From NCBI GenBank assembly GCA_042852035.1, contig BAAFHK010000003.1, positions 224,473 through 256,472 of the forward strand: a DNA stretch of 32,000 nt, given 5' to 3'. Position 1 is the first letter of the stretch. Every line of letters starts with the position of its first letter. Below the pieces are notes generated by a model. That model saw only the letters and a program-made list of their open reading frames with translations, was not told where the DNA came from and searched no databases. Position numbers and translations under genes: made by a program. This stretch comes from Candidatus Saccharimonadota bacterium. Its GTDB lineage: Bacteria > Patescibacteriota > Gracilibacteria > BD1-5 > UBA2023. Positions 4,279-29,807 of this stretch are shown here, piece by piece.

Positions 4279-6270
4279 ATGGCTCTAAATCAACAAGAAA
4301 AAGAATTTCTATTGCAACTTATTAATGAATGAAAAGATATACCAGAAGATTTCAAATATAAACTTTTTCCTACTCTACAAAAGGAGTATGAGTTAAGTTA
4401 TGCAGGTAAGATGAGAAAAGAAGATCTTTTTGCTAATGAAGATGGTGTTTTTCCTGTTCCACTTCAAGTAGAAAAAACTTTTAATTGAAATGAATATAAA
4501 TGATTTGAAGATGGATGGAAAAATATGATCGTGTTTTGAGATAATTTACAATTCTTAAAAACAATTTATGAGAATAAAGATGATACCATTAAAGATAAGA
4601 TTAAAGGAAAAGTGCAATTAATATATATTGACCCACCATTTGCAACTACTGATGAATTCCAAAATAAAGAATGAGCTAAGGCTTATAATGATAAAAAAAT
4701 AGGGTCTGAATTTATTGAATTTCTTAGAAGAAGACTACTGATTGCAAGAGAAATACTTAGTGATAAGGGGGTAATATATATTCATCTGGATTGGAAAATG
4801 TCTCAATATATCAAAATAGTTTTAGATGAAATATTTTGAAAAAATAATTTTAGAAATGAAATTGCTTGGTGTTATAGTTGACCTTGAAAAAGCAGTAAAT
4901 CTTTTATAAGAAAACATGATACAATTTTATTTTATGCAAAAAATTGGAAAGAAAGCACTTTTAATATACAAAGAATAGAGCATAAATCATGAATTCATAA
5001 TAGAGGAGCATATCTATGAAAGGAAAATGAAGATGCATGAGAACTTGTTGAAAAACTTGAAGAAGAATGAAAGAGATTAGAAGATTGGTGGACTGATATA
5101 TATACTGCAGACAGAAAAAGAAATGAACTAATCTGATACCCTACACAGAAACCAGAAGCACTATTAGAGAGAATAATTATGGCAAGTTCTAATGAGTGAG
5201 ACATAGTTATGGATTTTTTTGGAGGCTCATGAACTACAATGGCTGTTGCAGAGAAATTATGAAGAAAATGGATTAGTTGTGATTTATGAAAACTAGCCTA
5301 TTTTACAGAACAAAAAAGAATACTTACTATTCAAGATAGTAAATCCCTATTAGATGAAAAGAAAAACTATTGAAAAAAAGCAAGGAGTTTTATGACCTGC
5401 ACTCTATGAATGTATAACTTGAAGGATACTCTTGATTTAGAATGGAGTAAGTATAAAGAATTTGTAGGAACACTTTTTGATATAGATATTAAAACTACTA
5501 CTATTTGATGAGTTGAATTTGATGGGAAAAAGTGATCTGCTCCTGTAAAAATGTGGGACTATAATAAGCATAAGGATGCAAATGTTGATGAAACATATAT
5601 TAATACACTTCATCAGTCTATTAAGGCAAAAACAAGTAGAGTTTATATTGTTGCCCCTGCAAATAATATAGGTTTTATTAGTGATTATTTTGAAATAGAT
5701 GGAACAAGATACTATTTCTTAAAAATACCTTATCAGGTTATAAAAGAACTTCATAAAAAATCATTTCATAAAATTAGACAACCACAAAGTAAGAAGAATG
5801 TAAATGATCTTGAAGAAGCAATAGGCTTTCACTTTATCAAGAAACCAGAAGTAAAATCAAAAATAGTTGTTTCTAATGATGAAATATGTGTAGAAATTTC
5901 AGAGTTTAGAAGTCAGTATTATAAAGATGAAGAATGAAAAATATTAGAAAATTTTGAAACTCTATCTGCTGTTTTTATAGATGCTAATTTTAATGGAGAT
6001 CAGTTTATAATGACAGATGTAAAATTTGCTGATGATTTATTGTCAAAGAAGAAAAAAGGTAAGAAGGTAGATGAAGATGAAGAGATTGATGCAGAATTAG
6101 ATGAAGATGAAGAAGGGGTAAGTAATGAAGAGATTAGAGCAGAATTAAAAGAAACAGCAAATAAAGGATTAAAAATAATACTTCCAAGAAAAAAAGTAGG
6201 AGATAAAGTAATGCTTATCTATACAGATATTTATGGGAATGATTTTACAGAAATACTAACAGTCAATTAA
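4279..6270 (+). CDS. mod: Type III restriction-modification DNA methyltransferase (Mod, beta-class amino-methyltransferase)
   Basis: 663-aa code-25 ORF. Motif IV IYIDPPF comes before motif I DFFGGS-G-TT. Also I-G-YPTQKPEALLERII and F-G-DNLQFLK, with the G residues encoded by TGA. Acidic low-complexity C-terminal tail. The next gene starts 1 nt after the stop. Confidence 0.85.
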
Positions 6271-6271
6271 T

Positions 6272-8872
6272 ATGCAAGATATACATATTTTTAGAAATCA
6301 AGACCTAGTCTTAAAAGTTAATCCTACTTATGATCCTACAAAATTAAGATTAAAAGAATGGGATAGTTTTTTAGATAAACTTTGTTGAGATAGAGATTAT
6401 CAGAAAGAAGCAATAAAGCAGGTGATTATCTTTATGGTGTGAGGAAAATATAAAAAAATAGAGGATTTAGCAGAGGAGAATTATAAAAATAATCCTGAAC
6501 TACAAATAAAATATTCATCTCTTGAAGATTATTTACATAAATTACAAATTCAGGGAAAGTTATTTGCTAATATTGATCTTGCCACCTGAACTGGAAAATC
6601 TTATGTAATGTATGGTATAGCACAAATAATGTTGGGATTATGAGTTGTAGACAGAGTATTGCTACTTTGTCCCTCTTTGACTATTGAAGCAGGGTTAAAA
6701 GAAAAATTTGAAAGTTTAAGTTGAAACCAGCAACTAAAAGATGCTATACCTGAAAACTCCATAATAAAAAATCCAAGAATTATTGATGCAAACCAAACCA
6801 TTAAAAGCGGAGATATATGTATAGAAAACATACATGCAGTATATGAAAAAACAGGATCTTCTATACAAGATAGTCTAAAATGAACTGGCAGTAATGTATT
6901 AGTTCTTAATGATGAATCACACCATATTTTTAATAAATCTTCTGATAAAGATGTTAAAAAATGGAAGGAGTTTTTAACTAATGATGATTTTTGATTTCAG
7001 TATATAGTTTGATTTACAGGAACAGCATATATTGATAATAACTATTTCAATGATGTTATATATAGATTTTCATTAAGAGAAGCAATAGAAAATAAGTTTG
7101 TGAAAAGTATTGAGTATGTAGCAAAAGATGATAGTATTTGAAAATGAGAAAAATTTCAAAAGATCCATCAAAACCATATTGATAATATAGATAGATACCC
7201 AAAGATTAAACCTCTTACTATTCTGATTACAGCAGATATTGAAAAAGCAGAAGAATTAAAAGATGATTTAGTTGAGTTCTTGATGCAAAAAGAGAATAAA
7301 AGTAAAGAACAGATAGAAGAAAAGGTTTTAATTATCACTTCTCATAAAGATCATAAAAGTAATTTACTAAAACTAAAAACAGTTGATAGCAAAGAAAATA
7401 AAACTGAATGGATTATATCAGTTTCTATGTTAAGTGAAGGTTGGGATGTAAAAAATGTTTTTCAAATTGTTCCTTGGGAAGATAGGGCATTTAATTCAAA
7501 ACTACTTATATCACAAGTTTTATGAAGAGGTTTAAGAGTGCCACCAGAATATGAATTACCACAACCAAAAGTGATAGTATTTAATCATGATGCTTGGAGT
7601 AGAAATATCATAGAACTTGTAAATGAAGTGTTGGAGATTGAAAAAAGAGTGGTAAGTGAGGTGCTTGATAGTTGAGACAGAAGTAAATATAATTTTGAAG
7701 TATTTAATCTAGATTATTCAAAAGAAGAAGTGGAAGTTGAATTAGAAACAAAAGAAAGTGTGATGAATTTTAGTAGAATATTTAATGAATGAATTAAATT
7801 GGAAGCACAGGTTGAGGAAATAGAAAAATGAACTGTATTTGAGAGTTTAGGTTGAACTCAATCCCAGAGAGAAAAAAATTACTTGATTGAATATGCAACA
7901 ACTTCTGTTGATGATATAGTAGATAAAATCTATTCTGAATTTGAAATGAGGGATTGGGAATGAAAAGTGCTACAACTTAATCAAGAACAATATACTCAAA
8001 ATAATCTACCTCCTAGAACAGTAATTAAGGAAATTATTATAAAATCAATGCAAAAACTCTGAATTAAGGGGGAAAGATTGATAGAAAAAAATAAAAATCA
8101 TATCCTTTCAGGATTTTGAACTTTATTAAGAAAAAAGAATAAAACAGTTATTACAAAACTTAAAGTCAATGATCCTATACTAATAAAAACCATAGAAGTA
8201 GATAGAGAAAGTTTAGGAATTTGAAATTTTAGAAAAGATTGCACTGTATTTCTGACAACAAACTATTTACAGGAAGTAAATGAAGAACAAGGTGCTATTC
8301 TTTCTGAATTAAGTGAAGATGAAAGCCTCCCTAGAAGTGCAATCAAAGAGCAGAATGAGTATTTATTTAAAACACCCCTTAATGTTATCTTAACAAAATG
8401 AGAACCTGAAAGAAAATTTATTGAAGGTTTATGTAAGCAAGATGTTGTTGAAAAAATTAATTGTTGGATTAAATCGAGAGATAGAGGCTTTTATGGTATA
8501 GAGTATAGTTTGAGATATTGAGATAAATGAAGTAATACAAGGAGATATACAAATAAAAAATTTAACCCTGATTTCTTTATTCAAATACAAAAAGAAGATA
8601 TAAAATATACTCTTGTTATTGAAACAAAGATGGATTGAGATGATAGTGAAGAGAACAAAGCAAAATATAAATATGCATTAGAACATTTTAATAGATTAAA
8701 TGAAGAACTAGAACAGAGAGGAATAAATGAAAAATACATTTTTCATTTTCTTAGCCCCCAATGATATTCAACATTTTTTGAATATTTAAAAGATGGAAGA
8801 ATATTGGAAGGACAAGAAAAGTATAGGTGTGCTCTTGAAAATAGCCTAGAAAATAATGAAGAGGAGCTATAA
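6272..8872 (+). CDS. res: Type III restriction enzyme Res subunit (SF2 helicase plus C-terminal PD-(D/E)xK nuclease)
   Basis: 866-aa code-25 ORF. Walker A DLAT-G-TGKS, DEAH-type box NDESHH, MLSEGWDV, QVL-G-RGLR. C-terminal NPDFFI ... LVIETK nuclease motif. Translationally coupled to mod. Confidence 0.85.
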
Positions 8873-9619
8873 TAAGGAAATTGCATACTTCCCTGTAAAG
8901 TTTTCTTTTAGGATTTCTTCATATTTTTCTTTTTTATAATCCCAACAAGACACAATCAAAATAAGGTTCTTTTCTCTAAACAGAGGAAAGAACTTTTTAT
9001 TATTCTTTCTAGTATTCATATCTTCATATCCTAGTACTTTCTGATGAAACTGTTTGTATGAGTTCATATTTTCTAATTCAAGACAATAGGCTGTATTTCA
9101 GATACTTAATAGTAAATCTGGTATCATAACAAAATCTAGATATTCATATTTAGTTTCAGGATTTTTTAACTCTGTTTGAAGTATTTTTTGGATTGTTTTT
9201 GATCCTGTAAAATATTCTGCTTTCAATACAAAATCCTTATTTTTATTTCTAATCTTTCATAGGAAATAAACAAAGAGATCTCATAATAGTAGTTGATGAT
9301 TATATAGGGTATAACTGGTATTATAAATTGATGGTTCATATTTTATTCAGGTCTCATAATAAATCCTGTTTAGGACTATTTCAGTAGTATTTAGCATATA
9401 AATACTATACTGGCTTATACTTTTATATTCTTGTTTCAGTTCTTTTATAAATCAATGCTTTTTCAGGAGGAGTAGCCTTATATTAAAGGTTTTATGTTGG
9501 GTTTCTGGACTAACAATATTTTTTAGATTTCTAGAACTACAAAATCATAATTCATTTAAAGTATGAAATATTAACAAGTCCCTAGGTGTTAAAACTATAT
9601 TTTCTCTGGTTTTATTCAT
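8867..9619 (-). CDS. Replication-relaxation (Replic_Relax)-like protein: N-terminal wHTH plus PD...ELE nuclease-like motif
   Basis: 250-aa code-25 ORF. N-terminus LTPRDLLIFHTLNELGFCSSRNL resembles the family as I recall it. IPDLLL...CLELEN motif. Its ATG overlaps the stop of the upstream ATPase gene. Confidence 0.45.
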
Positions 9620-11066
9620 ACTTTTCTCAATTAGATTTTAAAAGTTTCTGTATATTTTGATCTCAAATATTTAAAGACTGTGTTAATATGCTTAAAGTTC
9701 AGTGGTTAATAGTGTCAAAAACAGAATAGAACTCTCATCTTTTGAGATTAACAATATCTTTTTCACTTATTGCAAACTTTTGCTCTAATCAAGAATTGGT
9801 AATAGGAACAAATAACTCTGCCTGTTCTGGTGGTAATGCAAAAATAAGTGAATAACTCAAATTATTTAGTAAATCCTGTAATTCTCTACTGATACTCTGG
9901 AATATAAACAACATATTTATTTTTTTCTTCCTGTGTTCATTTAGTATTTTCTCTAAAATATCTAACATATGATTTTTACTACCTTGGAGTTCGAGAAAAC
10001 TTTGAAATTCATCACAAGTATAATAATGGCTTCATAAGTTGGGATTATTATGATTTTTACCTGCTCCAATGTGATATAAAATGTTTGTAAGGAAAGATAT
10101 TACTACTCTTCTTTCTTGGGTATTGAATACTGAAAAATCAAATAGATATACTTCTGTTTGTTTCTTTTCTCAACTCATATAGTGTTCTATGTCCAATGTA
10201 AGTTCTTTATAACTTTTTCAATATCCAAAAGTATCTCCTAATCAAAAACTAAAATCTTTCAATTTTGTTAAACTGGTAATATGAGACTGTTTATCTACTT
10301 GAAGATCTTTAAGAAAAGTTTTTAACTCTTGGTCTACTCCATTTGCAAGTTGGAGTATGTCAGAATGAGTAGAAGAAAATAGTTTTTTTCTATCTTCATC
10401 AAGATAAGTAGGAAGTTTCTGGCATCTACTGGTATAATCTAACAAATCATATAAATCCCTATAAGATAATAAAACATTGTCAGGATCTCTATGGTATCTT
10501 TCTATATTGATAACTATAAAACTTCTTATAAGTCCCTCTAATACTTTTGTGTTTGAGGGTCAGAAAGCAGAGTAGTTAAATACTCATTTCAAAGAGGAGA
10601 TATTATAGTTTACCCATTTATTTAAGTCTGTAATATCTTCTACAAGAGACAAAGCAAATAGTGGATTAAAGAAAAATGTTTTATCCATATAAAACCCTCT
10701 ATATTTTTTATTATTTTCAATAGTTTCATTGGAAAATCTAAAAATATCTCAATATCTGCTTAATTTTGGATTATCTATTAAGTATTCTCATAAAAGATTT
10801 AACAAAGGATTTATAAATGAGTTATGGGGATCAATACAAACAAAAGTATCTCCATACTTTGTATTATCTGGTTGAGACTGTTGTAAAATTGAAGATTTTA
10901 TAGTAGAAAATAGGGTAGATACTAAACTGTATGTTTTGCCACTTCAAGATTTTCAGAATATTCATCAATGACCGGATTTTAAAATATTGTAGTTGAGTGA
11001 TAAAAGTGCTTTATCTTCTAGTATATGGGACTTCTGGACTGTCCCTATGGGTATAATGTGAGACAT
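9612..11066 (-). CDS. Type IV coupling protein-like ATPase (VirD4/TraG/TraD family), no obvious N-terminal TM segment
   Basis: 484-aa code-25 ORF. Walker A GKSGSGKT. Walker B and TraG-D_C-like region YYTCDEFQSFLE ... HRKKKINMLFIFQS. Confidence 0.6.
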
Positions 11067-14915: not shown

Positions 14916-16814
14916 ATGGAACAATCAAAGAAAAAAAGAGTAGGAATATACATTAGAGTTTCTACATTAGACCAAGCAAAAAAAGGAACTTCTCTTGAAG
15001 ATCAAGAGCAGAGTTTAAAATTATATATACAAGCAAACTCAATAGATGGTTGGGAACTTGCTGAAAATGGAGTTTACAGAGATGATGGAATTAGTGGTTT
15101 TAAGGGTATAGCAGATAGACCTGAATTTGATAGATTAATGAATGATGTGAATGACAAAAGATTAGATATTGTTTTGGTATATAGAATAGATAGACTAGCA
15201 AGAAATACAGAATTACTGCTGAATACTGTTAAGAAATTTAAAGTAAAGTGAGTGCAGTTTGTGAGTATGAGTGATAGAATTGATACAGATACAGCAAGTG
15301 GGAAGATGCTACTTGCTATACTAGGTGCTATGGCTGAAATGGAAAGGAACTTGATTTATGAAAGGACATATGCTTGAAAGATTAGAAAATTAAGTATGGG
15401 TTATGCTTCCTGATGATGATTTGATTTACCACTTGGTTATAAAAAATGAGAAGATGGGAAGATAATGATTGATGAGCCATATAAAGAGTTAATCCAAGAG
15501 ATTTTTGATCTTTGTACTGGGGAGAAGCACTTTACACCAAAAGAAATTGCTGCTGAATTATCATCAAGGGAAGAAACTACTTGGTGGGATAAAAAAATGG
15601 CAAAACTTAAAAAGAAACAAGTTAAAACAGGTGTCTGGAATGCAGATACAGTAAGAAAGATACTTCTCAATCCTATTTATAAATGAGTATACTATTTTTG
15701 AAAAACAAGAAAAGTGCTTGCAGATAATGAAGAAGATGAAATTACTGTAAAAGTTCCAGAAGAAGAATGGCTACCAGTTCCTATGCCTTGTGGTTGAATT
15801 ATTACAGAGAAACAATGGGAAGATGCTAAATATCAAATTCAAAAGATTAATAAAATTAATAGAGGAAGATGAAGAAGCCATATCTTTACAGGTCTAATTA
15901 AGTGTGGGTTTGACTGAATGAGTTATATTTGTTATAGGTCAAAACAGAAGAAAGTTGAATACTTTTATTATAGATGTGGTGGAACAAATGCGTCTAAAAA
16001 TGAGAATAAAAGAAAAGATACTGATGTAGGAAATATTGATATGCCTTTGTGTAATAATCTACAAGTTCCTGAATTAGAACTTTATAACTACTGTATTGAT
16101 ATTATTACAAGGTTCATAGAAGAACCAGAAGCACTATATAAACAAAAAATAGGGAATGATGAGGAGTTTAAGAAACAAAAAAAGATCCTTGAAACAAAAA
16201 TAGAGGAAGATAAGTTAAAAATTAAAGAACTTGAAGTTACTATAACATCATTGTATTATCAGAAATCAAAAGATAAAATAAATGCTGATAACATACAAAA
16301 TGTGCTTGATACATACACACAAGATAAAGAAGCAGCATTGAAAAGACTTGAAAATAATGAAAAAGATTTGCTAAATTCAGAAAATCAGTTAAATTCTGGC
16401 AAGCAAATGAAACAGTTTGCTGAGACTTACAAAGATAAACTTGCAAATCTTACAGAGGAACAAGGAACAGAACTTATTAGGTTGTTAGTTGATAGGATTG
16501 AAGTTAAAGGAACGTTAATTACAGTATTCTTTAAGTTCAAACCACACCCAGAGAGTTTTACACATAGTCAAACTCTAAAAAAAAACTCTAAAAAAATAGA
16601 GGGGGGAGATTTTACAACAAGTTCTACACCAAACAAGCAGTCTCTCCAACATATATGCAGCCGTAGTTCAGTTGGATTAGAACGCCTCCCTGCGAAGGAG
16701 GAGGTCACAGGTTCGAGCCCTGCTGGTTGCACCATTTCAACTCATAGAAGACTCTTCAGTACCATTTTTTGGCTCTGGGGAGCTTTTTTTAGGTTCGTAC
16801 TCATCTATACTTAA
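14916..16814 (+). CDS. Large serine recombinase LSR-A. The integrated-state ORF has no stop before the att core and runs through tRNA-Arg
   Basis: VGIYIRVSTLDQ (catalytic Ser), YRIDRLARN, recombinase domain, Zn ribbon CGFD-G-...YYRCGG, long coiled coil. The first code-25 stop is TAA at 16812-16814. The native end is probably just after core C (about 16613). Confidence 0.85.
16600..16613. repeat. att-like core copy C (AGGGGGGAGATTTT), putative attR of element A, inside the LSR-A ORF
   Basis: 14-nt identity with copies A and B, 44 nt upstream of tRNA-Arg. Confidence 0.55.
16657..16734 (+). tRNA. tRNA-Arg (anticodon GCG as folded by hand), CCA encoded
   Basis: Acceptor GCAGCCG/TGGTTGC, D arm GTTC..GAAC, anticodon stem CCTCC/GGAGG with loop CTGCGAA, T loop TTCGAGC, discriminator A, CCA. 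Confidence 0.7.
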
Positions 16815-18356
16815 TCAAACCTTGGAAGGTTGGAACCGATAGTTAATTGCTATTACTGGTCTTAAGTTCTCACGTGTAACCACTATATCTCTCACAAGAA
16901 TATTGATAATTTGCTTTTTTTGAGAAAAGGAGAGATTCTCAATTTTTGTCTCGATTGTTTTAGAAAATTCCTCAAGAGAGATTTTCATCTCTTCAGCTTG
17001 TACTATCCCATCAAGCTTCTCATCGAGATCCTGTATCTGTTTTTCACAAGCTTCTCTATCCTGAGATATTTTTGCAAGGACTTTTTCATATTTCTCTTCG
17101 GAGAGCATACCTTTCCTGTAATCTAATTCAGTTGATAGATCAGCATCTTCGAGCCTTTCAAGTTCTATCTGACGACGTTCACGCTCTTTAGTATATGTGT
17201 CGTAATCTCTACTGTCGACAGATTGCTTACGGAAGATATCATATAATTCCTGAGGTCTTTTAATAAAAGTCTCAATATGTTCCCATACCAATTCCTCTAG
17301 ACTCAATCAAGGAATATCAAAGTTTTTGTAATACTTTCCTCGGATAGTTCGAGCTGGACGACGGTAACTTATTCCACCTTTTGTTCGACTCACTCATACA
17401 AATTTCCGACCAGTTTCAAGATCGGTTACTTTTCTGGAGAGCAAATATTCTACGTTTCCACCTCATCTGACAGGATCCTCCTCACTCTCTTTGATGAGAT
17501 TTTTTGCAAGCTCGAAGGTGAGATCGTCTATAATCCTTGGCACCTCGATCGGTACTTGTGTCTCATATCACTTCTCGTCCTTGCTCTTGTACACAGCTCT
17601 CCCAGTATAAGCACCTCTTTCGAGAATATTTCTAATATCAGTATGATACCAAATTTTAGCTTTATTTTCTCTCGTATTCCCCTTTCCCTTATCGACCTTG
17701 TTTTCTGTAAGGATATTAGCGATTTCTTGATAGGTTTTCCCAGATAAGAATTCTGAGAAAATTCTCTTCACCCAAATTGCTTCTTCTGGAATAACAATTA
17801 ATGATCTTCATTCACGCTTATCACTTTTATCCTTAATATAACCAAATGGAGTCGTACTTAGTACATAATTCCCTAACCTTGCAGAGGCAAGCTTTCATTC
17901 TTTCGTTCTTGTCTTTATAGTTTCCCTCTCAAATTCTGCTAAAGCTCAAAATATCTGAAATGTAAGTTTACCGATGGGACCAGTAAAATCTATATTCTCT
18001 TTCAGAGAGAAAAATCAAACCTTATTTTTTTGTAAGATTTCAAATGTTGATAGAAGATGGGAGAGGTTCCGAGATAGTCTATCTATTTTCCACACAGCAA
18101 CCATATCAAACTTCCCAAGCATAGCGTCTTCTATCATTTTTTTATACTGAGGTCTATTCAGATCAGCACCAGTCTTTCCTAGGTCCTGATACACCCATTC
18201 TGGATTATGTATCCAGTTATTGTGTTTTCCTCGAAAAACAATCATTTCCTGTAATCACTGAAGTTGCATTTCTGGTCAATAGCCATTCTTTTGTTCTTCA
18301 GTCGATACACGGATATAAAATGCAACTCGATGGGGTTTATCACTAATTGTAAGCAT
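16677..18356 (-). CDS. Large serine recombinase LSR-B. Code-25 reading continues past TGA at 16817-16815 into the antisense of tRNA-Arg
   Basis: VAFYIRVSTEEQ, WKIDRLSRN, G-ALAEFERETI, coiled-coil C-terminus. Internal TGA codons sit at conserved Gly positions. Under code 25 the first stop is TAA at 16679-16677. The homology-like end (…INYRFQPSKV) is at 16818. Confidence 0.8.
16752..16797. repeat. Direct repeat, left copy (putative attL of element B)
   Basis: TGGCTCTGGGGAGCTTTTTTTAGGTTCG (16770-16797) matches 23347-23374 at 27 of 28 nt. The upstream CTCTTCAGT is also shared. Contains a weak GCTC/GAGC hairpin plus a T7 run. Confidence 0.65.
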
Positions 18357-20140: not shown

Positions 20141-21169
20141 CTATGTTACTATTCTAAAATTAAAATTCACAGCATCTATGGAGTAAATAGTGATATCCTC
20201 ACATCTTACCTTATTGTCACGAAACAAAGCTATATTATATCACTGTGGATTCAAAGAACTATCGTATATTAAACCATCATATCATCACAAAACTTTTAAA
20301 AATTCAGCAATATATTGCGTTGGGAGATAATCTAACTCTTTGTCATCTTTTAGATTTGGCTTTGAAAACTCATTACTCATTCTTGAAATGAAGTGAATAT
20401 AAGGATAATAGTCTTCTATTTTTTCCCTCTCTGAAAGACGCATAAAATCAATAGAATCTTTCCTCAGATCAACTAAAATCAAATCCTCTAGTACTATGAA
20501 TTTCCCAGTGCATATTTGATCATAATGGGAGGCTCTAGTTTCATAGAATGTAGTAACAACATCACCTGATAGATATAAATAGGGTATTCCTATTGGGTTA
20601 ATTCTTCAGCCTTTAGAGGATACTTTATTTATAGGAGGCATACCCAAATCTTGGATATTATATAAATTTCAAGATCTACTAATCCTGCTTCTATACAATA
20701 AGTTATCAGCATCAATGGTAGTAGTGTGATAGTTTATTAAAATATATTCTATCTCTTCTAAATCTAACGCATTTGTTATATGGAATCGATTAGTATTTTT
20801 TAATTCATTGGTAAAGTTATCCCATCATTTAGTTAGGTGTATTTTTTGAGATGGAACTAATTTAGCATTGTCAAAAATTGGATATTTATGGGTGATAAAT
20901 ATGTCACTAAGTAATCTATTACTGCCTCATCAGGGATTAAAAATGCTTCAAAATTCTCAAAGTATAGAATCTATAGTTCAGATTGAACTCTCAATATCTT
21001 CAATATGTAGTTTTGAAAGACCCTCAAACATATGACCAAAGTCCACATCGCTAATATCACAAACGTGAACATTATTACTCTCGCAATAATCACACTCACC
21101 CTGTTGATTTAAAGAGCTAATGTACGCTTTAACATATGGACTATTGAAACAATTTTTACAACAAAGCAT
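20141..21169 (-). CDS. RES domain protein with N-terminal Cys-rich (Zn-ribbon-like) domain; predicted NAD-targeting toxin or effector
   Basis: 342-aa code-25 ORF. CCKNCF...CDYCES at the N-terminus. RES signature GGRINPIGIPYLYLSGDVVTTFYETR and C-terminal G-G-YDGLIYDSSLNPQ-G-YNIALF. The start lies 3 nt after the stop of the upstream gene. Confidence 0.75.
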
Positions 21170-21172
21170 ATA

Positions 21173-22126
21173 CTATACTAAACTAACCATTAATTCTATA
21201 TGATTCATAATCGCAAGCTTCTTTATAGAACCAAGTCAAGGGAAGTGACCAGTATTGTATAAATCTATAAATTCTTTAATGCCTTGTGTTTCAATTCCAG
21301 TATTCTTGGACCATTCTACTAATTTTGAGTTTGCCTCATTAAATTTTCAGGCAACATCAGATCTATCTCAATTTGAATCTGAAACAAAATGCCTTACCAT
21401 TACTTTCCCCGAAGTATCTTTATACGAAATATGTATAGCTACTGCAAAAGGCATAAATCCAGCTTCTGAATAGTTATCTCAAATGGTAGCAAAATCTCAA
21501 AATCCGACAAATTGTTCCGTCTTATAAAATAGATGCTCTTCGGTAAAAGCACTTGATTTGTCTTTATAATCAGAGTTCCTATTTTGTGATTCGAAATAAT
21601 CTGCTAGTGAAACCCTGGAAGATTCTATAAACTCTCTATAATAACGACGATTGCTGTTTGTTTTATCGAAATTAATTACGTTATATTTAATTTTTGCAAT
21701 CGAACTAAGATCATCTTGAAGTGACTTAATATTATCAGCATCTAAAACACTATTATGAATTAAGGATAACCCGCTTCAAACAGGTCCAGTTGTCACTAAA
21801 CAGCCTTTAATTTCGCTTGCTTTTAGAAAGTAGTTATCGTTTATGATAAGTCATATTTGAAAATTACTATAATCTCATAGCTCGGTAGTAACTAACTCCA
21901 TTATTTGTTCATACTTATCTTGAGCATCGCCATATTCAGGATTTAGAACAATAGTAAAATTAACGTTACTCTCTTTGAGTTTCCGTAGAGTTATATCAAA
22001 TGTTGTCGAAAACTTAACGGGCTCAATTATTGGTGAAACCTTTTCATTATTCAGGGCTAAAAAAGAGCTCATATCTCTAAGTGCCATTAATTCGAATTGC
22101 TTTCATCTTAGATACGGAAAATACAT
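21173..22126 (-). CDS. T4 Beta-protein / sce7725-like family protein (function unknown)
   Basis: 317-aa code-25 ORF. The N-terminus MYFPYLR-G-KQFELMALRDM and FVGF-G-DFATI-G-DNYS match my recollection of that family. 2-nt gap to the upstream gene. Confidence 0.45.
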
Positions 22127-22128
22127 AT

Positions 22129-23058
22129 TTATGAAACTTTAGTATTTAAATACTGATTCAGCTTTTGAAGCTCTTTGCTGTCTAGCCCTATGTTATAGCA
22201 AGAATACCTTAATGCCTCAGGTGCTGTCTTTAAGTAATTTTGATAACTTACATTCTTTTTGCGTTCTTTTAGCCTTTCGAAAGCTAGTTTCTGAAATTTG
22301 GTTACTTCTATATTCTTAGCAAGATCTAAGCAATAACGGAATTGTTTAGTATTTGGTACATCAACCTTAGTATTGAAATAGTTCTCGATTAAATTCAAAT
22401 ATTCATCTTTTCTCAAGGTTTTAAATATTGTGTCGTGATCAAACCTTGTCATATCCACAATGGCTTCTTGTACAGTCTTGAGAGTATTTCTATTTGTAAA
22501 TTCAATGATTCCTATATTAGTATCCTTATACTCTTCGATGATTTTTGCTAATAACTTTTTACTACTGACTATATAAACTTTATTTGCGAATTTTCTATAG
22601 TCATTTATTTGTTTTTCTAGCTTATCAAGTGTGTCTAATTCTGTCTTTACTTCAAATATCTTTACCTCACCATTGAGTAAGACGAAATCAGCAATTGAGG
22701 ATCATATAGTAAACTCATCAAATACTACAGTATGACTTGTCTTATATTTTGATAATTGACTATGTAAGAGTTTATTCTTATAAAAATACTCATTTCTATA
22801 ATTCCTTAGCAAGTACTCATATAGACTCTCTACAATGTCCTTATATGTAGAACCTTCTTGAATATCAAAATGTTTACTGATTCGATACCTAAACGCCGAA
22901 AAATCACCATCTATAAATTTTTTGATAGACGATGCCGAAAGAAGGGAGGCAATACTGATGAGAGCGTCTTTTTGTAGATCTTGTAACATATTGATTTTCC
23001 TCATTCTAATCGAATTGCTCGATAAAACAACATTTTTACTATACATAAAATTGCACAT
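22129..23058 (-). CDS. PD-(D/E)xK nuclease-fold protein (sce7726-like); start codon uncertain
   Basis: Code-25 ORF. YRNEYFYKNKLL then VVFDEFTI-G-SSIADFVLLNGEVKIFEVKTELD (a D...EVK motif). Candidate starts at 23058, 23046 and further in-frame Met codons downstream. Confidence 0.5.
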
Positions 23059-23094: not shown

Positions 23095-23316
23095 CTATAC
23101 TATAACACCCTCTCTTTCCACCCTCTCAAGAAATGATCAGACTGAGTTCTTCGGTGTTTGGACTCGGATTGATTCTTGATATTCCTTAAGCTTCTTTACT
23201 TCCTCACGGTGCATTGTCACGTACTGACTTTTCCATCGATTTCCTATTTGCAACTTACGTAACTTGAAATACAGAGGAAGGACAAAGTAACGTTCTGAGT
23301 TTTTACCACCATACAT
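23095..23316 (-). CDS. Small basic ORF (73 aa) abutting the right repeat; in frame with LSR-B across a reconstituted attP
   Basis: ATG 23316 to TAG 23097-23095. The frame stays open upstream through the repeat. Unusually long stop-free stretch for this composition. Confidence 0.35.
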
Positions 23317-23327
23317 ATTGGAATTAG

Positions 23328-23374
23328 CTCTTCAGTCGTCACTTTGTGGCTCTGGAGAGCTTTTTTTAGGTTCG
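23328..23374. repeat. Direct repeat, right copy (putative attR of element B)
   Basis: TGGCTCTGGAGAGCTTTTTTTAGGTTCG (23347-23374) plus the upstream CTCTTCAGT. See 16752-16797. Confidence 0.65.
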
Positions 23375-23707
23375 CCCACTGCTTCATTTCCGACTATCTT
23401 TGATTGGTCGAACCTTTGTTTTTCTTAGCATTTGATAAACCTTAACAATTCTTAACATCTTTCCATATATTTCATGTAACTGATATACCTGGAGAAATGA
23501 CTTATTTGAACTACGCATACAGTTGAAATTTTAGCCAACAGCTACTGCTTATTTTCTTGATGTAAATTTCTATTTCATATAAAATCAATACTTCAGATTT
23601 TTCAAAAATATATCGGAAATCTTAATTTTTACACCATACAATTTAGTTTAGCTTTGAATTATATACAGTATACATATAATTTATCTATCCCCTAAACAAG
23701 AAGTTTT

Positions 23708-25960
23708 ATGCTACAATCTCTTGCGTGAAATCTCCAACTTGAACCAGAAAATTGATCACAAAGAATCTGGCAATTCCTACATCAATATCTGTCACAATTA
23801 GGATCCAATGGTATATTAGGTTATAAGATACCATCATTGTGAAATGAGCAAGAATGGGTTCCTTCAATTATTTTTAGATCAAAAGAACATGGGATAATAT
23901 TAATTGAAATCGCAAAAGATAAACTAGAATCAGTCAATGATAGTGATTATTGGTTTTATAAAACATGACATACTCACACTAGAAATAAAGATAATGTTTT
24001 AGATACATTTAAATGAGAAGTTGAAAATAGACTAAGAAAGAGTAATCAACTATATGATAGAAAAAACAAGATGTTCTTAGTTGAAATTAAAACAATATTA
24101 ATTCTTCCTTTTAATGATAAAGTAGATGAAAAATCACTCTTAACAGAATTATATCCAGATTGGCTCTGTGATAAAGTTCTCTACTCAGATAACTATGAAG
24201 ATGAATTAAAATCACTGCTTTGAGAAAAAGATTTAAATTATGGTGAAGATCAATTGAGTATGATAGATGCATTGCTGGAATGAACAGAATCATTTATTTC
24301 AAAAAATGATTTTATTCCCAATGATCCTAAAACAAAAAATGATTTTATAAAAGAATCTCTCAATGAAACTTTTAGATTAGACCAAACTCAGAGATCTCTA
24401 GCCATGCAAATTCCTAGTTGACCACAACGAATTAGATGACTTGCAGGTACTTGAAAGACAGTGATTTTGTGCATGAAAACAGCCCTAGTACATAAGGATC
24501 ATAAAGATTTTAAAGTACTGTTTTTATTTAATACTCAAAGCATGTACTGACAAATTCGAGATAAGATAACAAAGTATTATTTAAACGAGAAAAAAAGTAT
24601 ACCAGACTGGAATAATGTTCATATTTTACATGCCTGGTGATGAAGATCTCGTGAGTGATTATATTATAGGCTCTGCAATGAGTTGAATATTAAACCAAAA
24701 ACCCTTTTGGATATTCCAAGATGATTTGATGGTACTGAAGTAATTTATAAAGACATTTTAAAATATAAGGATCAACTCAAGCAAGAATATGATATGGTTT
24801 TAATTGATGAGGCTCAAGATTTTCCACAGGAAGTATTTGAGACACTGTTCTATATAACGAAGTGAGATCCTTGAAAGAAAAAAATTATTTGGGCGTACGA
24901 TGAATTTCAAACATTAAAAGATATTAAAATCAAACAACCTGAACAATTATTCTGAAGAGACAATGATGGCAACCCAAATATGCCAAACAATATATTAGAT
25001 TGACAGTATCTTTGATGAATAAAAAAGGACTTCGTTTTACCAAATTCATATAGAAACCCACGCCTCACTTTAATGGTGGCTCATGGAATATGAATGTGAT
25101 TATATAGCGAAAAAGATATAATTCCTATGGAAGATAGGGAATCCTGGATTGCTCGATGATATACTGTCATTGAGCCCGCACAAAAGAATAACTTCTCTGC
25201 AAATGATCAAGTGGTGGTTGAAAGAGAAGACACTTATAGTAAGAATATTTTAGAGAGATTGTTATCTGAAAAATGAAATCATAATGATACATTAATACAA
25301 TTTCATGATGCTGATAATCTAATTTCCGAATTAACTTATGTTAGCTCAGAAATTAAGAAGCTAATTACAGAAGACGGTGTTCCTCCTGAAGAAATAATTG
25401 TTATTACACTTCGAACATCAACATCCAAAAAAGATCTAGAAATGCTAAGATCACTACTTAATCAAAATGGTATAAGTGCGATTACGCCTTGATATGTGGA
25501 ATCTTCAAATATGTTTAAGGAACCATGATCTGTAACCTTGGTTACGCCATTTAGAGCAAAAGGAAATGAGGCAAATATCGTTTTTGTAATAAATTCTCAA
25601 CAAGTTATAGCAAATGCAACTTATGTTGCAAGAGGATCATTTTTTGTATCTGTAACTAGATCCCGATGATGGTGTTATATTTCATGAAATGGAGATTTTA
25701 TAGATAAATTATGACTCGAAATTAATAAAATTATTAGTGATTATCCAAAATTCAAATTTTCATTTCCTAATCCTGAAAGCCTTCAGAGGAGACTTAATCT
25801 TATCAACAATTCAGATAAGGCGGAAAAGGTGGATGAACAAATTGATTTATTATTCTCTGACGAGGTCTCAAAAAGTGTTTTAATGGAAAGATTACTTAAA
25901 GATGAGGCTTTTAAAAAAGTTTATAATGAATATCAAGCAAAAAACAGCAATGATGTTTAG
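23708..25960 (+). CDS. Fused PD-(D/E)xK (NERD-like) nuclease and SF1 UvrD-like helicase
   Basis: 750-aa code-25 ORF. N-terminal HGIILIEIAKDK nuclease-like core. Walker A GLAGT-G-KT, Walker B MVLIDEAQDF, late SF1 motifs TPFRAKGNEANIVFV and VSVTRSR. Confidence 0.7.
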
Positions 25961-26714
25961 TAGAAGAAAATCAGATTTATGAAAAGAGCTTCTGGATGAA
26001 TTAAATCTTATTAATTCATATTTCTCAGAACTCATAATAAGCTCTTGATTTTGTTTAGATCAGGTTAATTCAATAACATGGTGAAACTATGAGCGTGGAA
26101 TTTCTTCCCAATTCTATACCCAAGAATATATGAACCTTGTTAATAAAAGACAATATAGTTTTCTGCTTAAAGAAAATAAAGGATTTATACAATTTTTCTT
26201 TAGCACTGACTGAAATGTTATCACTAAATGAAAGATGGCATTTTATCCATACCCTGTTGAAGTTAATATAGAACTGAATGATATTGAAGAATTGCTTATG
26301 TCTTCGGACGATGATATTTTATGAGAGCATTTAATAAATATACATGAATTACTCGATTCTGAGATTTCATGATCAAATCTAGATAACGAGGAAAGTATTG
26401 CTTATAAGTATTTAAAGAAATACCCTATTACAAATTCTTCACATCTTAGGGTTGATTACTCTCCTGGTGTAAGCAGTCATCAGATTTGTGAAATGCAAAT
26501 GTGATGAATAAATACTGTTCGGTTACCCTTTGCGGTTTTTATTCGTCCATTTATATTTTTCTCATTCATTGTAAAAAATATTTTTCCTGAAGAATATAAA
26601 AATCTTAAGACTCATAAATCAGATCCAATTGATAAATTAATTCAATCACACAAGAAAAAAAGTCTTTTTATAAAAGACTTTAAAGAAGAGAACTTTTATT
26701 TTACCCATATTTAA
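25950..26714 (+). CDS. Uncharacterised partner protein (254 aa) overlapping the helicase stop by 11 nt
   Basis: Code-25 ORF from ATGATG at 25950 to TAA 26712-26714. HLRVDYSPGVSSHQICEMQ followed by a hydrophobic stretch. Possibly a DUF2290-type protein, but that is a weak recollection. Confidence 0.5.
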
Positions 26715-26907
26715 TTAACTTAGTTTAAGTACCCAATTGGAGTAAAAGGTAGAATATACTCTTTTTCTAAGGTTTAAAATTAAATCCATTATTCTAATAT
26801 AACTAAATATTGCTAATTTTTGCAGATGTATATATTTTATCATAATTTTCGACAAAATTCTTTATTGCGGTTCGTGCATGTGCCGTAATTTGTGCACCAT
26901 TATATAT

Positions 26908-26936
26908 AAAATGGCTCTACTAAGTAGAGCCATTTT
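26908..26936. terminator. Bidirectional-looking terminator hairpin
   Basis: AAAATGGCTCTAC-TAA-GTAGAGCCATTTT, a 13-bp stem with an A run on one side and a T run on the other. Confidence 0.55.
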
Positions 26937-26981
26937 TAAATTTGGATGTGGGCCGGTGGTGCCGGCCCGAGGTTGAAGGAT

Positions 26982-27317
26982 TCAGTCCTCTTTGGGGGTG
27001 GGTTTCTTCTTCTCGGCTACCGTCTGTTGGACGATGTGTACCGGGGTGAATGCGCCCAGCGTCACGGAAGCCACGATGGCAATTCCGATGAATCCCCAGA
27101 AGGATTCGAATTGGCTCACTTGGCAGCCGAAGATCTTGTGGAATGCCACCCAGAAGGGGTAGCCAAGAACCTCGATACACCAATACAAGCCATCCTTTAT
27201 CCACTGGAACACTCCAGGGATGACATGGTAGAGTGTTACCCCTACGATGCCGATGACGAGAATGGAGAAGATAGTACTTCCCACACTCCGCCAGTCTGTT
27301 GGCCACACGTTTTTCAA
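26982..27317 (-). CDS. Small Trp-rich membrane protein (3 predicted TM segments) encoded by a GC-rich foreign-looking segment
   Basis: TTG start at 27317 preceded by GGAGAA. 111 codons without an internal TGA, GC-rich third positions. Ends on TGA (26984-26982), followed by the GC hairpin GGGCCGG-TGGTG-CCGGCCC. Under code 25 it would read on to TAA at about 26873-26875. Confidence 0.55.
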   Translation of the reverse strand: MKNVWPTDWRSVGSTIFSILVIGIVGVTLYHVIPGVFQWIKDGLYWCIEVLGYPFWVAFHKIFGCQVSQFESFWGFIGIAIVASVTLGAFTPVHIVQQTVAEKKKPTPKED

Positions 27318-27504
27318 AGTGTTCTCCGAAAGTCAAAGACAAATGTATTATAATTAGTATTTTATATATTTCAAGCAACTCACTTACCACTTACTTACTT
27401 CGCCCTGCTACAATATGGTTATCTTCTCTTCCAGAAGTCTTGGTGTCATAACAAGAAGTGTCATCTATTTCTGGAAGGAAGGTTTCTATTCTTAATTTTC
27501 TCAT

Positions 27505-28113
27505 ATGAAAAATAAATTTATCCTTTCCGGACTTATCATCTCTACAGGTTTCTGATTGTCTGCTACTACATGGGCCTCAAGCAGCACCAACGAGAGAACT
27601 CTTCCTCCTGAATTCTCGGTTCTCTCTGATTCTGATCGAGAAACTCTTTCGACTCTTACTGGTACAGCGCGTGATACATTTCTCGAATCAAAAGGAATCA
27701 CACGACCAGAAGCTGGAAGTGGTATGGAACACGGTTTGAACCATATAGATCTCACAGATGCTGAGAAAACAGCGCTAGAATCTATGACAGAAACTGAGCG
27801 ACAAGCGTTTTTTGTTTCGAAGGGAATCACTCCTCCTACAAATACATGATCAAGTAATCCTCTCTCGAATCAAAATGACCGAAGAAGTTTATGATGAAGA
27901 AACCGATGAGATTCGACTCAAGCTGGACTTATCCAGACTGGCACAACCCAAACTGGGGCAACTATTTCTCGAGCACAAAGACTCAAAAATAATCAAGCAA
28001 AACTCACTTCAGCACGAATAGAGAAAATCCAAAATAAAGTTGTAAGTGGTGAAAAACTTACTCGTCTCGAAAAAGTATTTGCTCGAAAAAATAATATAGA
28101 TGTCGGAGAGTAA
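27505..28113 (+). CDS. Secreted protein with two roughly 29-aa internal repeats
   Basis: Code-25 ORF with signal-like MKNKFILSGLIISTGF. Repeats SDSDRETLSTLTGTARDTFLESKGITRPE and TDAEKTALESMTETERQAFFVSKGITPPT. Confidence 0.55.
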
Positions 28114-29728: not shown

Positions 29729-29807
29729 TGGAGCGGGGGACCGGGTTCGAACCGACACACCCAAGGGTTGAAGCCTTAGTACACTCACTCTTTTATGTTA
29801 CCCCCGC
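29729..29807 (-). tRNA. tRNA-Gly (anticodon UCA), the UGA-decoding tRNA of genetic code 25
   Basis: Reverse complement GCGGGGG-TA-ACAT..GTGT-..-TAAGG-CTTCAAC-CCTTG-GGTGT-GTCGG-TTCGAAC-CCGGT-CCCCCGC-T-CCA. Anticodon loop C-U-UCA-A-C. G1:C72, C2:G71, G3:C70 and U73 are bacterial GlyRS identity elements. Confidence 0.8.

Follow-up and report, generated by a model that had tools for sequence, protein, structure and literature searches.

What is a pair of overlapping genes doing beside an integration hotspot in a genome with a non-standard genetic code, and to which system, if any, does it belong? The question is raised by a 3-kb locus (23708..26714) in a stretch of 32,000 nucleotides (nt) of contig BAAFHK010000003.1, assembly GCA_042852035.1, the whole of which is referred to below as the window. 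A first-pass annotation, made from the letters of the sequence, had read here a fused nuclease-helicase followed by an overlapping partner, and had proposed a defence pair. As judged from the comparisons described below, the locus is very probably a two-gene Helicase-DUF2290 anti-phage defence operon of Gracilibacteria that has been adapted to genetic code 25, in which UGA is read as glycine. The proposal of a two-gene, defence-type module was thus borne out, but not the view that the combination is uncharacterised, as it has been published and is held in both PADLOC and DefenseFinder. The coordinates of all features are collected in Table 1.

Identity with a catalogued defence system

The combination of a helicase with a DUF2290 protein was experimentally validated by Rousset et al. 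2022 (PMC9122126), where the Helicase+DUF2290 genes of a P4-like satellite of K. pneumoniae SB5961 blocked phage T7 in E. coli, and a later paper described phage-specific effects of Helicase-DUF2290 in P. aeruginosa. The window helicase matched the PADLOC model PDLC03002 'Helicase' over nearly the whole length (residues 87-710, E=6e-105), a match which is not discriminating when taken alone, since a sister clade without DUF2290 matches the model too. The partner matched PDLC02998 (E=1.1e-11) and PDLC02999 (E=2.4e-8) and, in Pfam, DUF2290 (PF10053) with 41.2 bits against a cutoff of 25 (E=1.5e-10). The protein that had been set down as uncharacterised is therefore a member of a named family. 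The validated SB5961 proteins, the sequences of which were taken from Table S2 of PMC9122126, match the same PADLOC models (helicase 5.6e-200, DUF2290 3.4e-99), and their alignment with the window proteins gave 34% identity over the helicase core (E=2e-40) and 24% for DUF2290 (E=6e-8). Because the PADLOC and Pfam models and the alignment are common to the window pair and the validated proteins, the pair is placed, by sequence, as a distant member of this known and catalogued system.

Within that system, the window helicase reached the NCBIfam equivalog model NF053713, for the STM2767-family helicase, with 103.9 bits (E=7.5e-30), its highest-scoring stretch being limited to residues 234-405. 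On account of this score of 104 as against a cutoff of 550 bits, the window pair is assigned to a subfamily other than that of the enterobacterial STM2767 equivalog.

The genetic code and the reality of the two genes

With the bacterial code (table 11) the locus appears empty. The list of open reading frames (ORFs) held none of at least 60 amino acids (aa) on the + strand of 23708..26714, and translation of the helicase frame with this table gave 30 in-frame stops, all of them TGA. These codons fall at expected glycines, e.g., in LAGT*KT, which is the Walker A motif, and the summed length of the window ORFs of at least 80 aa was 3,069 aa with table 11 as against 14,579 aa when TGA was taken as a sense codon. 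In an alignment with 24 homologues, 19 of the 30 TGA positions of the helicase fell into columns with a glycine majority, 14 of which are invariant glycines, and the middle glycine (G249) of the GTGKT Walker A is itself a TGA codon in such an invariant column. TGA is the main glycine codon of the helicase gene (30 of 44), and nine more UGA glycines are found in the DUF2290 gene. Code 4, where UGA specifies tryptophan, was ruled out, as none of the 30 TGA positions aligned to Trp while 19 aligned to Gly. The window also encodes a tRNA with the anticodon UCA, which is likely to be the UGA decoder for both genes. NCBI entries 100% identical to both proteins (the helicase being P0005, annotated as 'DEAD/DEAH box helicase', and the DUF2290 protein HHAS10_12220) come from a 256-kb contig of a metagenome-assembled genome (MAG) of 'Candidatus Altimarinota' in the Patescibacteria group, a phylum equivalent to Gracilibacteria, whose lineage reads code 25. 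Given the alignment of TGA to glycine, its position as the main glycine codon, the UCA tRNA and the NCBI taxon, the window uses genetic code 25 (UGA=Gly), and it is the code, not an absence of genes, that causes table-11 calling to come up empty.

The two ORFs, their coordinates and their motifs had been given correctly by the first-pass annotation, although they are right under code 25 only. The 11-nt overlap between them holds if the ATG at 25950 is the start of the DUF2290 gene; other in-frame ATG codons lie at 25953, 25926 (the NCBI start, giving 262 aa) and 25902, and overlaps of 4 to 14 nt are the norm in the family. There is a practical warning in this, namely that the 3-kb operon is invisible under the default code 11, so that surveys of defence systems in Gracilibacteria and Absconditabacteria need code 25. 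A literature search found nothing specific on surveys of defence systems in Gracilibacteria.

The helicase

The three motifs recognised earlier, GTGKT, DEAQDF and VTRSR, are present in the translated protein, and with the invariant residues listed in Table 1 its ATPase and helicase motifs read as intact. The AlphaFold2 (AF2) model of the helicase (predicted local distance difference test, pLDDT, 84.4) found its top PDB matches in the superfamily 1 (SF1) enzymes Schlafen-11/14, Dna2, Upf1, PcrA/UvrD and RecD. All scored similarly, with E-values between 1e-14 and 1e-9 and template modelling scores (TM-scores) of about 0.3-0.4. In Pfam, the matches to UvrD-helicase and UvrD_C_2 were marginal and those to SLFN-g3_helicase/DUF2075 weak, and weak partial matches to the GajB profiles of PADLOC were seen at E=1e-5 or weaker. 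The earlier term 'UvrD-like' is accordingly sound for SF1 and only approximate for UvrD, with Schlafen-11/14 as the best structural match. Searching the PDB sequences with the helicase profile gave nothing at E<=0.01, and therefore no structure of a Helicase-DUF2290 system exists.

More than 1,000 relatives of the helicase were found at E<=1e-10, and Bacteroidota, Cyanobacteria, Proteobacteria and other groups have full-length homologues that are 43-49% identical. Their taxonomic distribution is patchy, and relatives reside in islands and on plasmids, 47 of the latter carrying one. The phage GenBank collection held no relative at E<=1e-20.

An obligate pair

A scan with the helicase over one genome per species yielded 353 loci, 80 of which were analysed, the DUF2290 ORFs beside the helicase being detected with an iterated hidden Markov model (HMM). 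DUF2290 was found directly downstream and on the same strand in 71 of the 80 loci, mostly with junctions of -4 to -14 nt. The nine others comprised two contig ends, one truncated helicase remnant and six loci of the sister clade; wherever a locus within the clade had both an intact helicase and downstream sequence, DUF2290 was there (71/71). The reciprocal search, seeded with the close-clade DUF2290 alignment, gave 20 metagenome and viral loci, and in all 18 that had upstream sequence the helicase lay directly upstream; in IMG/VR the same alignment found one locus. The two proteins have diverged together, as their pairwise distances over 67 loci correlate with r=0.92 (Mantel p about 0.001), DUF2290 being the faster of the two (mean distance 0.75 versus 0.64 for the helicase). 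A third conserved gene was sought among the neighbours of the 71 loci and none was found, the largest cluster being an integrase-like protein at 6 loci. Because of the adjacency, the co-divergence, the lack of a third gene and the occurrence on plasmids, the pair is a self-contained, mobile and obligate two-gene module, for which a housekeeping role is excluded.

Decayed copies were also encountered: L049 (5145-6197) is an N-terminally truncated helicase without DUF2290, and L100 (3299-4333) retains short fragments of both genes. The module has evidently been lost as well as gained.

The first-pass annotation had made its proposal depend on two points, conservation of the partner beside homologous helicases and separation from the housekeeping repair helicases. 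The first is answered by the 71 of 80 and 18 of 18 loci above. The second concerns the possibility that the protein serves in repair or recombination, in the manner of UvrD, Rep, PcrA or RecB, and that the gene downstream has nothing to do with it, to which the marginal Pfam matches to UvrD-helicase and UvrD_C_2 and the presence of UvrD and PcrA among the structural matches might point. Of the NCBIfam models for housekeeping helicases, however, only recB was listed, with 14.7 bits against a cutoff of 696 (E=0.0058), and none of the PDB sequences was matched by the helicase profile at E<=0.01. The window helicase does not group with the housekeeping enzymes, and the patchy taxonomy, the plasmids and islands, the obligate linkage to DUF2290 and the island-like base composition leave this explanation barely credible and effectively refuted.

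The N-terminal domain and the sister clade

The helicase begins with a domain that had been described as a PD-(D/E)xK/NERD-like nuclease. Pfam NERD (PF08378) did not match the N-terminus of the window helicase at E<=1. The N-termini of the sister clade match the same Pfam model at E=1e-11, and hhalign aligned the N-region of the window protein with this NERD-bearing clade at a probability of 97.6% and E=2.8e-12, the profiles compared having been built from full-length homologues. The order of secondary structures in the model of the domain, alpha-beta-beta-beta...alpha-beta, is that of PD-(D/E)xK folds. By these profile comparisons, the N-domain is classed as a homologue of the NERD nuclease.

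The positions of the D...ExK triad read S53, E67 and A69 in the window helicase, and with the triad absent the domain is probably not an active PD-(D/E)xK nuclease. None of the 69 DUF2290-linked helicases has the full triad, whereas all three full-length sister-clade proteins have it ('EPDI...IECKG'). The fusion of a NERD-related domain to an SF1 helicase, as first described, is thus upheld, while its nuclease function is not. The loss of the triad in all 69 DUF2290-linked helicases, as against its retention in the sister clade, provides a testable mechanistic hypothesis, which is taken up below.

The same architecture, an N-terminal domain of a nuclease family followed by an SF1 helicase, had also suggested a resemblance to single-protein nuclease-helicase immunity factors such as Nhi, in which case the downstream gene would be incidental. 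The likeness is superficial: the PADLOC Nhi model PDLC02372, which is part of the library, did not match the window helicase at E<=0.1, the triad is absent, and DUF2290 is present in 71 of 71 loci within the clade. An Nhi-like factor is highly improbable here, and the resemblance was given up in favour of the two-gene operon.

The sister clade without DUF2290 comprises L051, L054, L062, L064, L065 and L072, from cyanobacteria, Chloroflexota and a Heimdallarchaeota MAG. The NERD triad is intact in the full-length members L051, L054 and L072 and not in L065. Downstream of the helicase, L054 has a DUF6414 protein (7140-8117) and L065 a protein in which the motif RNASSH is HEPN-like (4929-5588); these two proteins may be alternative effector partners.

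The DUF2290 protein

The DUF2290 family numbers some 1,600 cluster representatives, of which 973 were found at E<=1e-10; almost all are standalone proteins of 215-265 aa. The AF2 model of the window protein has a pLDDT of 75.4 and a predicted TM-score (pTM) of 0.72, with a confident core. The motifs HLRVDYSP and SHQICEMQ, noted at the outset, are present in the 254-aa protein. Conservation was followed in 170 diverse members, with positions given in the numbering of the 254-aa window protein: R167, D169 (D/E), H177 and E181 (H/E) are conserved in 100%, Q81 and R191 in 99%, Q183 (H/Q) in 98% and G185 in 95%, and position 75, a glutamate in the window, is an aspartate in 96% of the members. The conserved motifs come to lie on adjacent beta strands of the AF2 model, and the polar core is regarded as a putative active site. 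The sequence profile found nothing useful among the PDB sequences.

The protein also has a hydrophobic stretch, with a Kyte-Doolittle 19-residue maximum of 1.87 at VRLPFAVFIRPFIFFSFIV, which might be taken for a membrane anchor. The homologues carry K, D and N in the same segment, and the model places it in a strand and a core helix. The transmembrane reading was dropped for these reasons; the stretch itself is real, but it is probably not a membrane helix, and the anchor is not convincing.

A possible division of labour

How the two proteins might act together is put forward here tentatively, as a model that may well prove wrong and the inferred part of which is the assignment of the sensor to the helicase and of the effector to DUF2290. 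The SF1 helicase would load on phage DNA, at ends or replication intermediates, and translocate along it, with the non-catalytic NERD-like domain serving to bind DNA or the partner. Translocation would then activate or deliver DUF2290, an effector enzyme which would most likely hydrolyse nucleic acid with the help of a metal or a histidine. In the sister clade the nuclease function belongs to the NERD domain and is exercised in cis; DUF2290 would supply it in trans. Because the stop of the first gene overlaps the start of the second, the two proteins would be held in a fixed ratio, which would fit a complex. The helicase may thus be the DNA-sensing and translocating subunit and DUF2290 the effector, an assignment that is likewise tentative. 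It is because the loss of the NERD triad coincides with the presence of DUF2290 that DUF2290 is considered as a compensating effector. A more specific proposal, that DUF2290 is a new enzyme fold without a neighbour in PDB or BFVD which took on the effector role upon the loss of the triad, is doubtful.

If this proposal is true, a 'cis-to-trans effector swap' would have taken place naturally in a single lineage of helicases. The system would moreover have been kept and fully recoded in a lineage of Gracilibacteria with a reduced genome, with UGA for Gly at invariant catalytic glycines, and the alternative code would prevent its expression in, or its borrowing by, hosts and phages that use the standard code.

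Several points weigh against the reading of the locus as a defence operon with this division of labour. Identity between the window proteins and the validated ones is no higher than 24-34%. A homologue from Lactococcus failed to protect against the phages with which it was challenged, so that activity of the window pair cannot be assumed, and the literature gives no mechanism for any Helicase-DUF2290 member. A Foldseek search with the DUF2290 model returned nothing significant (best E=0.29 in PDB and 0.08 in BFVD), and with no significant structural neighbour the fold offers no lead, which makes the chemistry of DUF2290 a guess. Among the non-significant top hits the chorismate-lyase/UTRA ligand-binding fold recurs, a likeness that would favour a sensor over an effector role for DUF2290 and that is only a lead. 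In the N-domain, a semi-conserved lysine (K72) follows the acidic residue of motif III by five residues, and a non-canonical nuclease site is formally possible there.

The last two points suggest a model in which the roles are reversed, with DUF2290 as a sensor, regulator or adaptor that recognises a ligand or a phage protein, and the helicase as the effector, which would use ATP to break up the complexes of phage replication or packaging, or else act as a nuclease through a non-canonical site of its NERD-like domain. The many weak Foldseek hits to the small-molecule-binding UTRA type would agree with this, as would the lysine after motif III and the faster evolution of DUF2290 (0.75 versus 0.64), such as is often seen in sensors that face the phage. 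The UTRA-type hits are non-significant, however (E>=0.29, probability <=0.06), the strictly invariant R, H and D/E of DUF2290 are typical of catalysis, and the NERD triad is lost exactly where DUF2290 is present. The reversal of roles is considered unlikely, and the helicase is kept as the presumed sensor and DUF2290 as the presumed effector.

Genomic setting

The pair lies at the edge of a 24-kb region of low guanine plus cytosine (GC) content, its own GC being 29-31% as against 36-40% in the core-like ends of the window. The part of this island at 4279-11066, with 26-29% GC, encodes a Type III restriction-modification (R-M) system, a HerA-like ATPase and several proteins without a Pfam match. 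Two large serine recombinase genes converge on a tRNA-Arg gene, which their 3′ ends overlap, an arrangement that points to integrations, in tandem or nested, at a single hotspot. A direct repeat of 35 nt, 91% identical in its two copies (16763-16797 and 23340-23374), brackets a 6.6-kb element that holds a recombinase and the RES-sce genes. The helicase gene starts 334 nt past the right copy, which is consistent with the first description of the locus as lying immediately outside the island boundary. Both copies of the repeat include a hairpin that resembles a terminator, with a T7 tract after it, and for this reason the repeats are not proven to be attachment (att) sites; they may be shared terminators. 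A small ORF (23095-23379, - strand) begins with the peptide EPKKSSPEP, which is also found near the C-terminus of the recombinase in this element.

Table 1. Coordinates of the features discussed, as positions in the 32,000-nt window
Feature	Position	Strand	Remarks
Helicase gene of the Helicase-DUF2290 system	23708..25960	+	750 aa, code 25, TAG stop
NERD-related N-domain (predicted) and helical linker	23708..24367	+	residues 1 to about 220
Walker A, GTGKT	24446..24460	+	residues 247-251; invariant in homologue alignment
Walker B / motif II, DEAQDF	24806..24823	+	residues 367-372; D367, E368, A369, Q370, D371 invariant
Motif VI region, VTRSR	25652..25666	+	residues 649-653; T650, R651, R653 invariant
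DUF2290 partner gene	25950..26714	+	254 aa; 11-nt overlap with helicase gene
DUF2290 conserved polar core	26442..26522	+	H165-x-R167-x-D169-Y...H177-x3-E181-x-Q183-x-G185...R191 (254-aa numbering)
Intergenic leader, divergent sce7726 operon / helicase	23380..23707	+	sigma-70-like matches 23442-23471 (10/12), 23557-23585 (9/12)
A-tract, 10-bp hairpin ATGGCTCTAC-TAA-GTAGAGCCAT, then TTTT	26906..26938		hairpin 26911-26937; read from sequence
tRNA, anticodon UCA	29729..29807	-	ARAGORN label tRNA-SeC
Type III R-M Mod	4279-6270		N6_N4_Mtase
Type III R-M Res	6272-8872		ResIII
HerA-like ATPase	9612-11066	-	
Large serine recombinase	14916-16814	+	
tRNA-Arg(gcg)	16657-16734		
Large serine recombinase	16677-18356	-	
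RES + HEPN_RES_NTD1 protein	20141-21169	-	three-gene operon 20141-23058
sce7725-family protein	21173-22126	-	three-gene operon 20141-23058
sce7726-family protein	22129-23058	-	three-gene operon 20141-23058; PADLOC 'cll' model of gop-beta-cII, 1.6e-17

Two sigma-70-like matches lie in the leader that separates the helicase gene from the divergent sce7726 operon, but the assignment of a promoter is weak, because these are consensus matches only and fewer than in shuffled sequence. Downstream of DUF2290, a hairpin with flanking A- and T-tracts is probably a bidirectional terminator, shared by the DUF2290 operon and a convergent gene for a small membrane protein; Rfam gave a weak stem-loop match at 26887-26936, and the terminator scan did not list the hairpin. 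The convergent ORF (26982-27317, - strand) encodes 111 aa, is membrane-protein-like and has no Pfam match. It lies in a GC-rich patch, with 1-kb windows of up to 0.44 GC as against about 0.30 in the adjacent sequence, and an Rfam scan of the GC-rich 26650-27650 found nothing credible.

The RES, sce7725 and sce7726 genes between the repeats form an operon that is a candidate defence or toxin module. The label gop-beta-cII was not used for this trio, the P4 'beta' protein being without BLASTP similarity to the sce7725 protein. With such a module nearby, it has to be asked whether the helicase and DUF2290 themselves serve mainly to stabilise the island, by abortive infection or by addiction of the toxin-antitoxin type, with DUF2290 as a toxin kept in check by the helicase. 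The tight coupling of the genes by their overlap, the presence of the family on plasmids and beside integrases, and its narrow phage spectrum are further features that would fit. Against it, nothing points to a labile partner of the antitoxin type, a 750-aa ATPase would be unusual as an antitoxin, and the family was validated by phage challenge and not by plasmid stabilisation. An addiction module is therefore held to be improbable, and anti-phage defence remains the preferred reading of the pair.

The nearest relatives of the two proteins are only 48% (helicase) and 40% (DUF2290) identical and use the standard code, which suggests that the pair was acquired horizontally long ago and was then thoroughly recoded. 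Together with the Type III R-M system and the RES-sce7725-sce7726 trio, Helicase-DUF2290 would make up a stacked defence island in a genome of the candidate phyla radiation.

Comparison with known systems

The best full-length structural matches of the helicase were the eukaryotic Schlafen-11/14 proteins of group III (E=3e-14 to 1e-12). The likeness does not extend beyond the SF1 core, TM-scores being only about 0.3, and there is no relationship between the nuclease domains at the N-termini. In its logic the proposed arrangement resembles Gabija (GajB) and Hachiman (HamB), where a helicase senses DNA and a separate small partner is the effector. Both the helicase subfamily and the partner fold differ, however, the window partner being a homologue neither of GajA (OLD/TOPRIM) nor of HamA (Cap4-like nuclease) and having no detectable nuclease fold. 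Nhi of Staphylococcus shares with the window helicase an N-region of a nuclease family followed by an SF1 helicase and, presumably, a role in defence, but it is a single protein with an active nuclease, whereas in the window the triad is lost and the partner obligatory.

Closer are the NERD helicases without DUF2290, i.e., the sister clade, which are annotated as 'nuclease-related domain-containing DEAD/DEAH box helicase'. They are homologous over the full length with the same order of domains, and L051 scores 5e-154 on the helicase model PDLC03002. They differ in that they have kept the canonical D...ExK triad and the Pfam NERD match, and have no partner or other ones.

The closest system is Helicase+DUF2290 itself ('Rst_HelicaseDUF2290' in DefenseFinder, 'Helicase-DUF2290' in PADLOC). 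The window clade is distant from the validated proteins, its host is a code-25 member of Gracilibacteria, and its DUF2290 carries the motif H-x3-E-x-Q in place of the commoner H-x3-H-x-H. What it has in common with them is the arrangement of the genes, DUF2290 coming after the SF1 helicase on the same strand and overlapping it, together with the helicase motifs, the core residues of DUF2290 and a setting among mobile elements or in a defence island. The type of system is thus one already published, and the standard defence finders detect the locus once the correct code is used.

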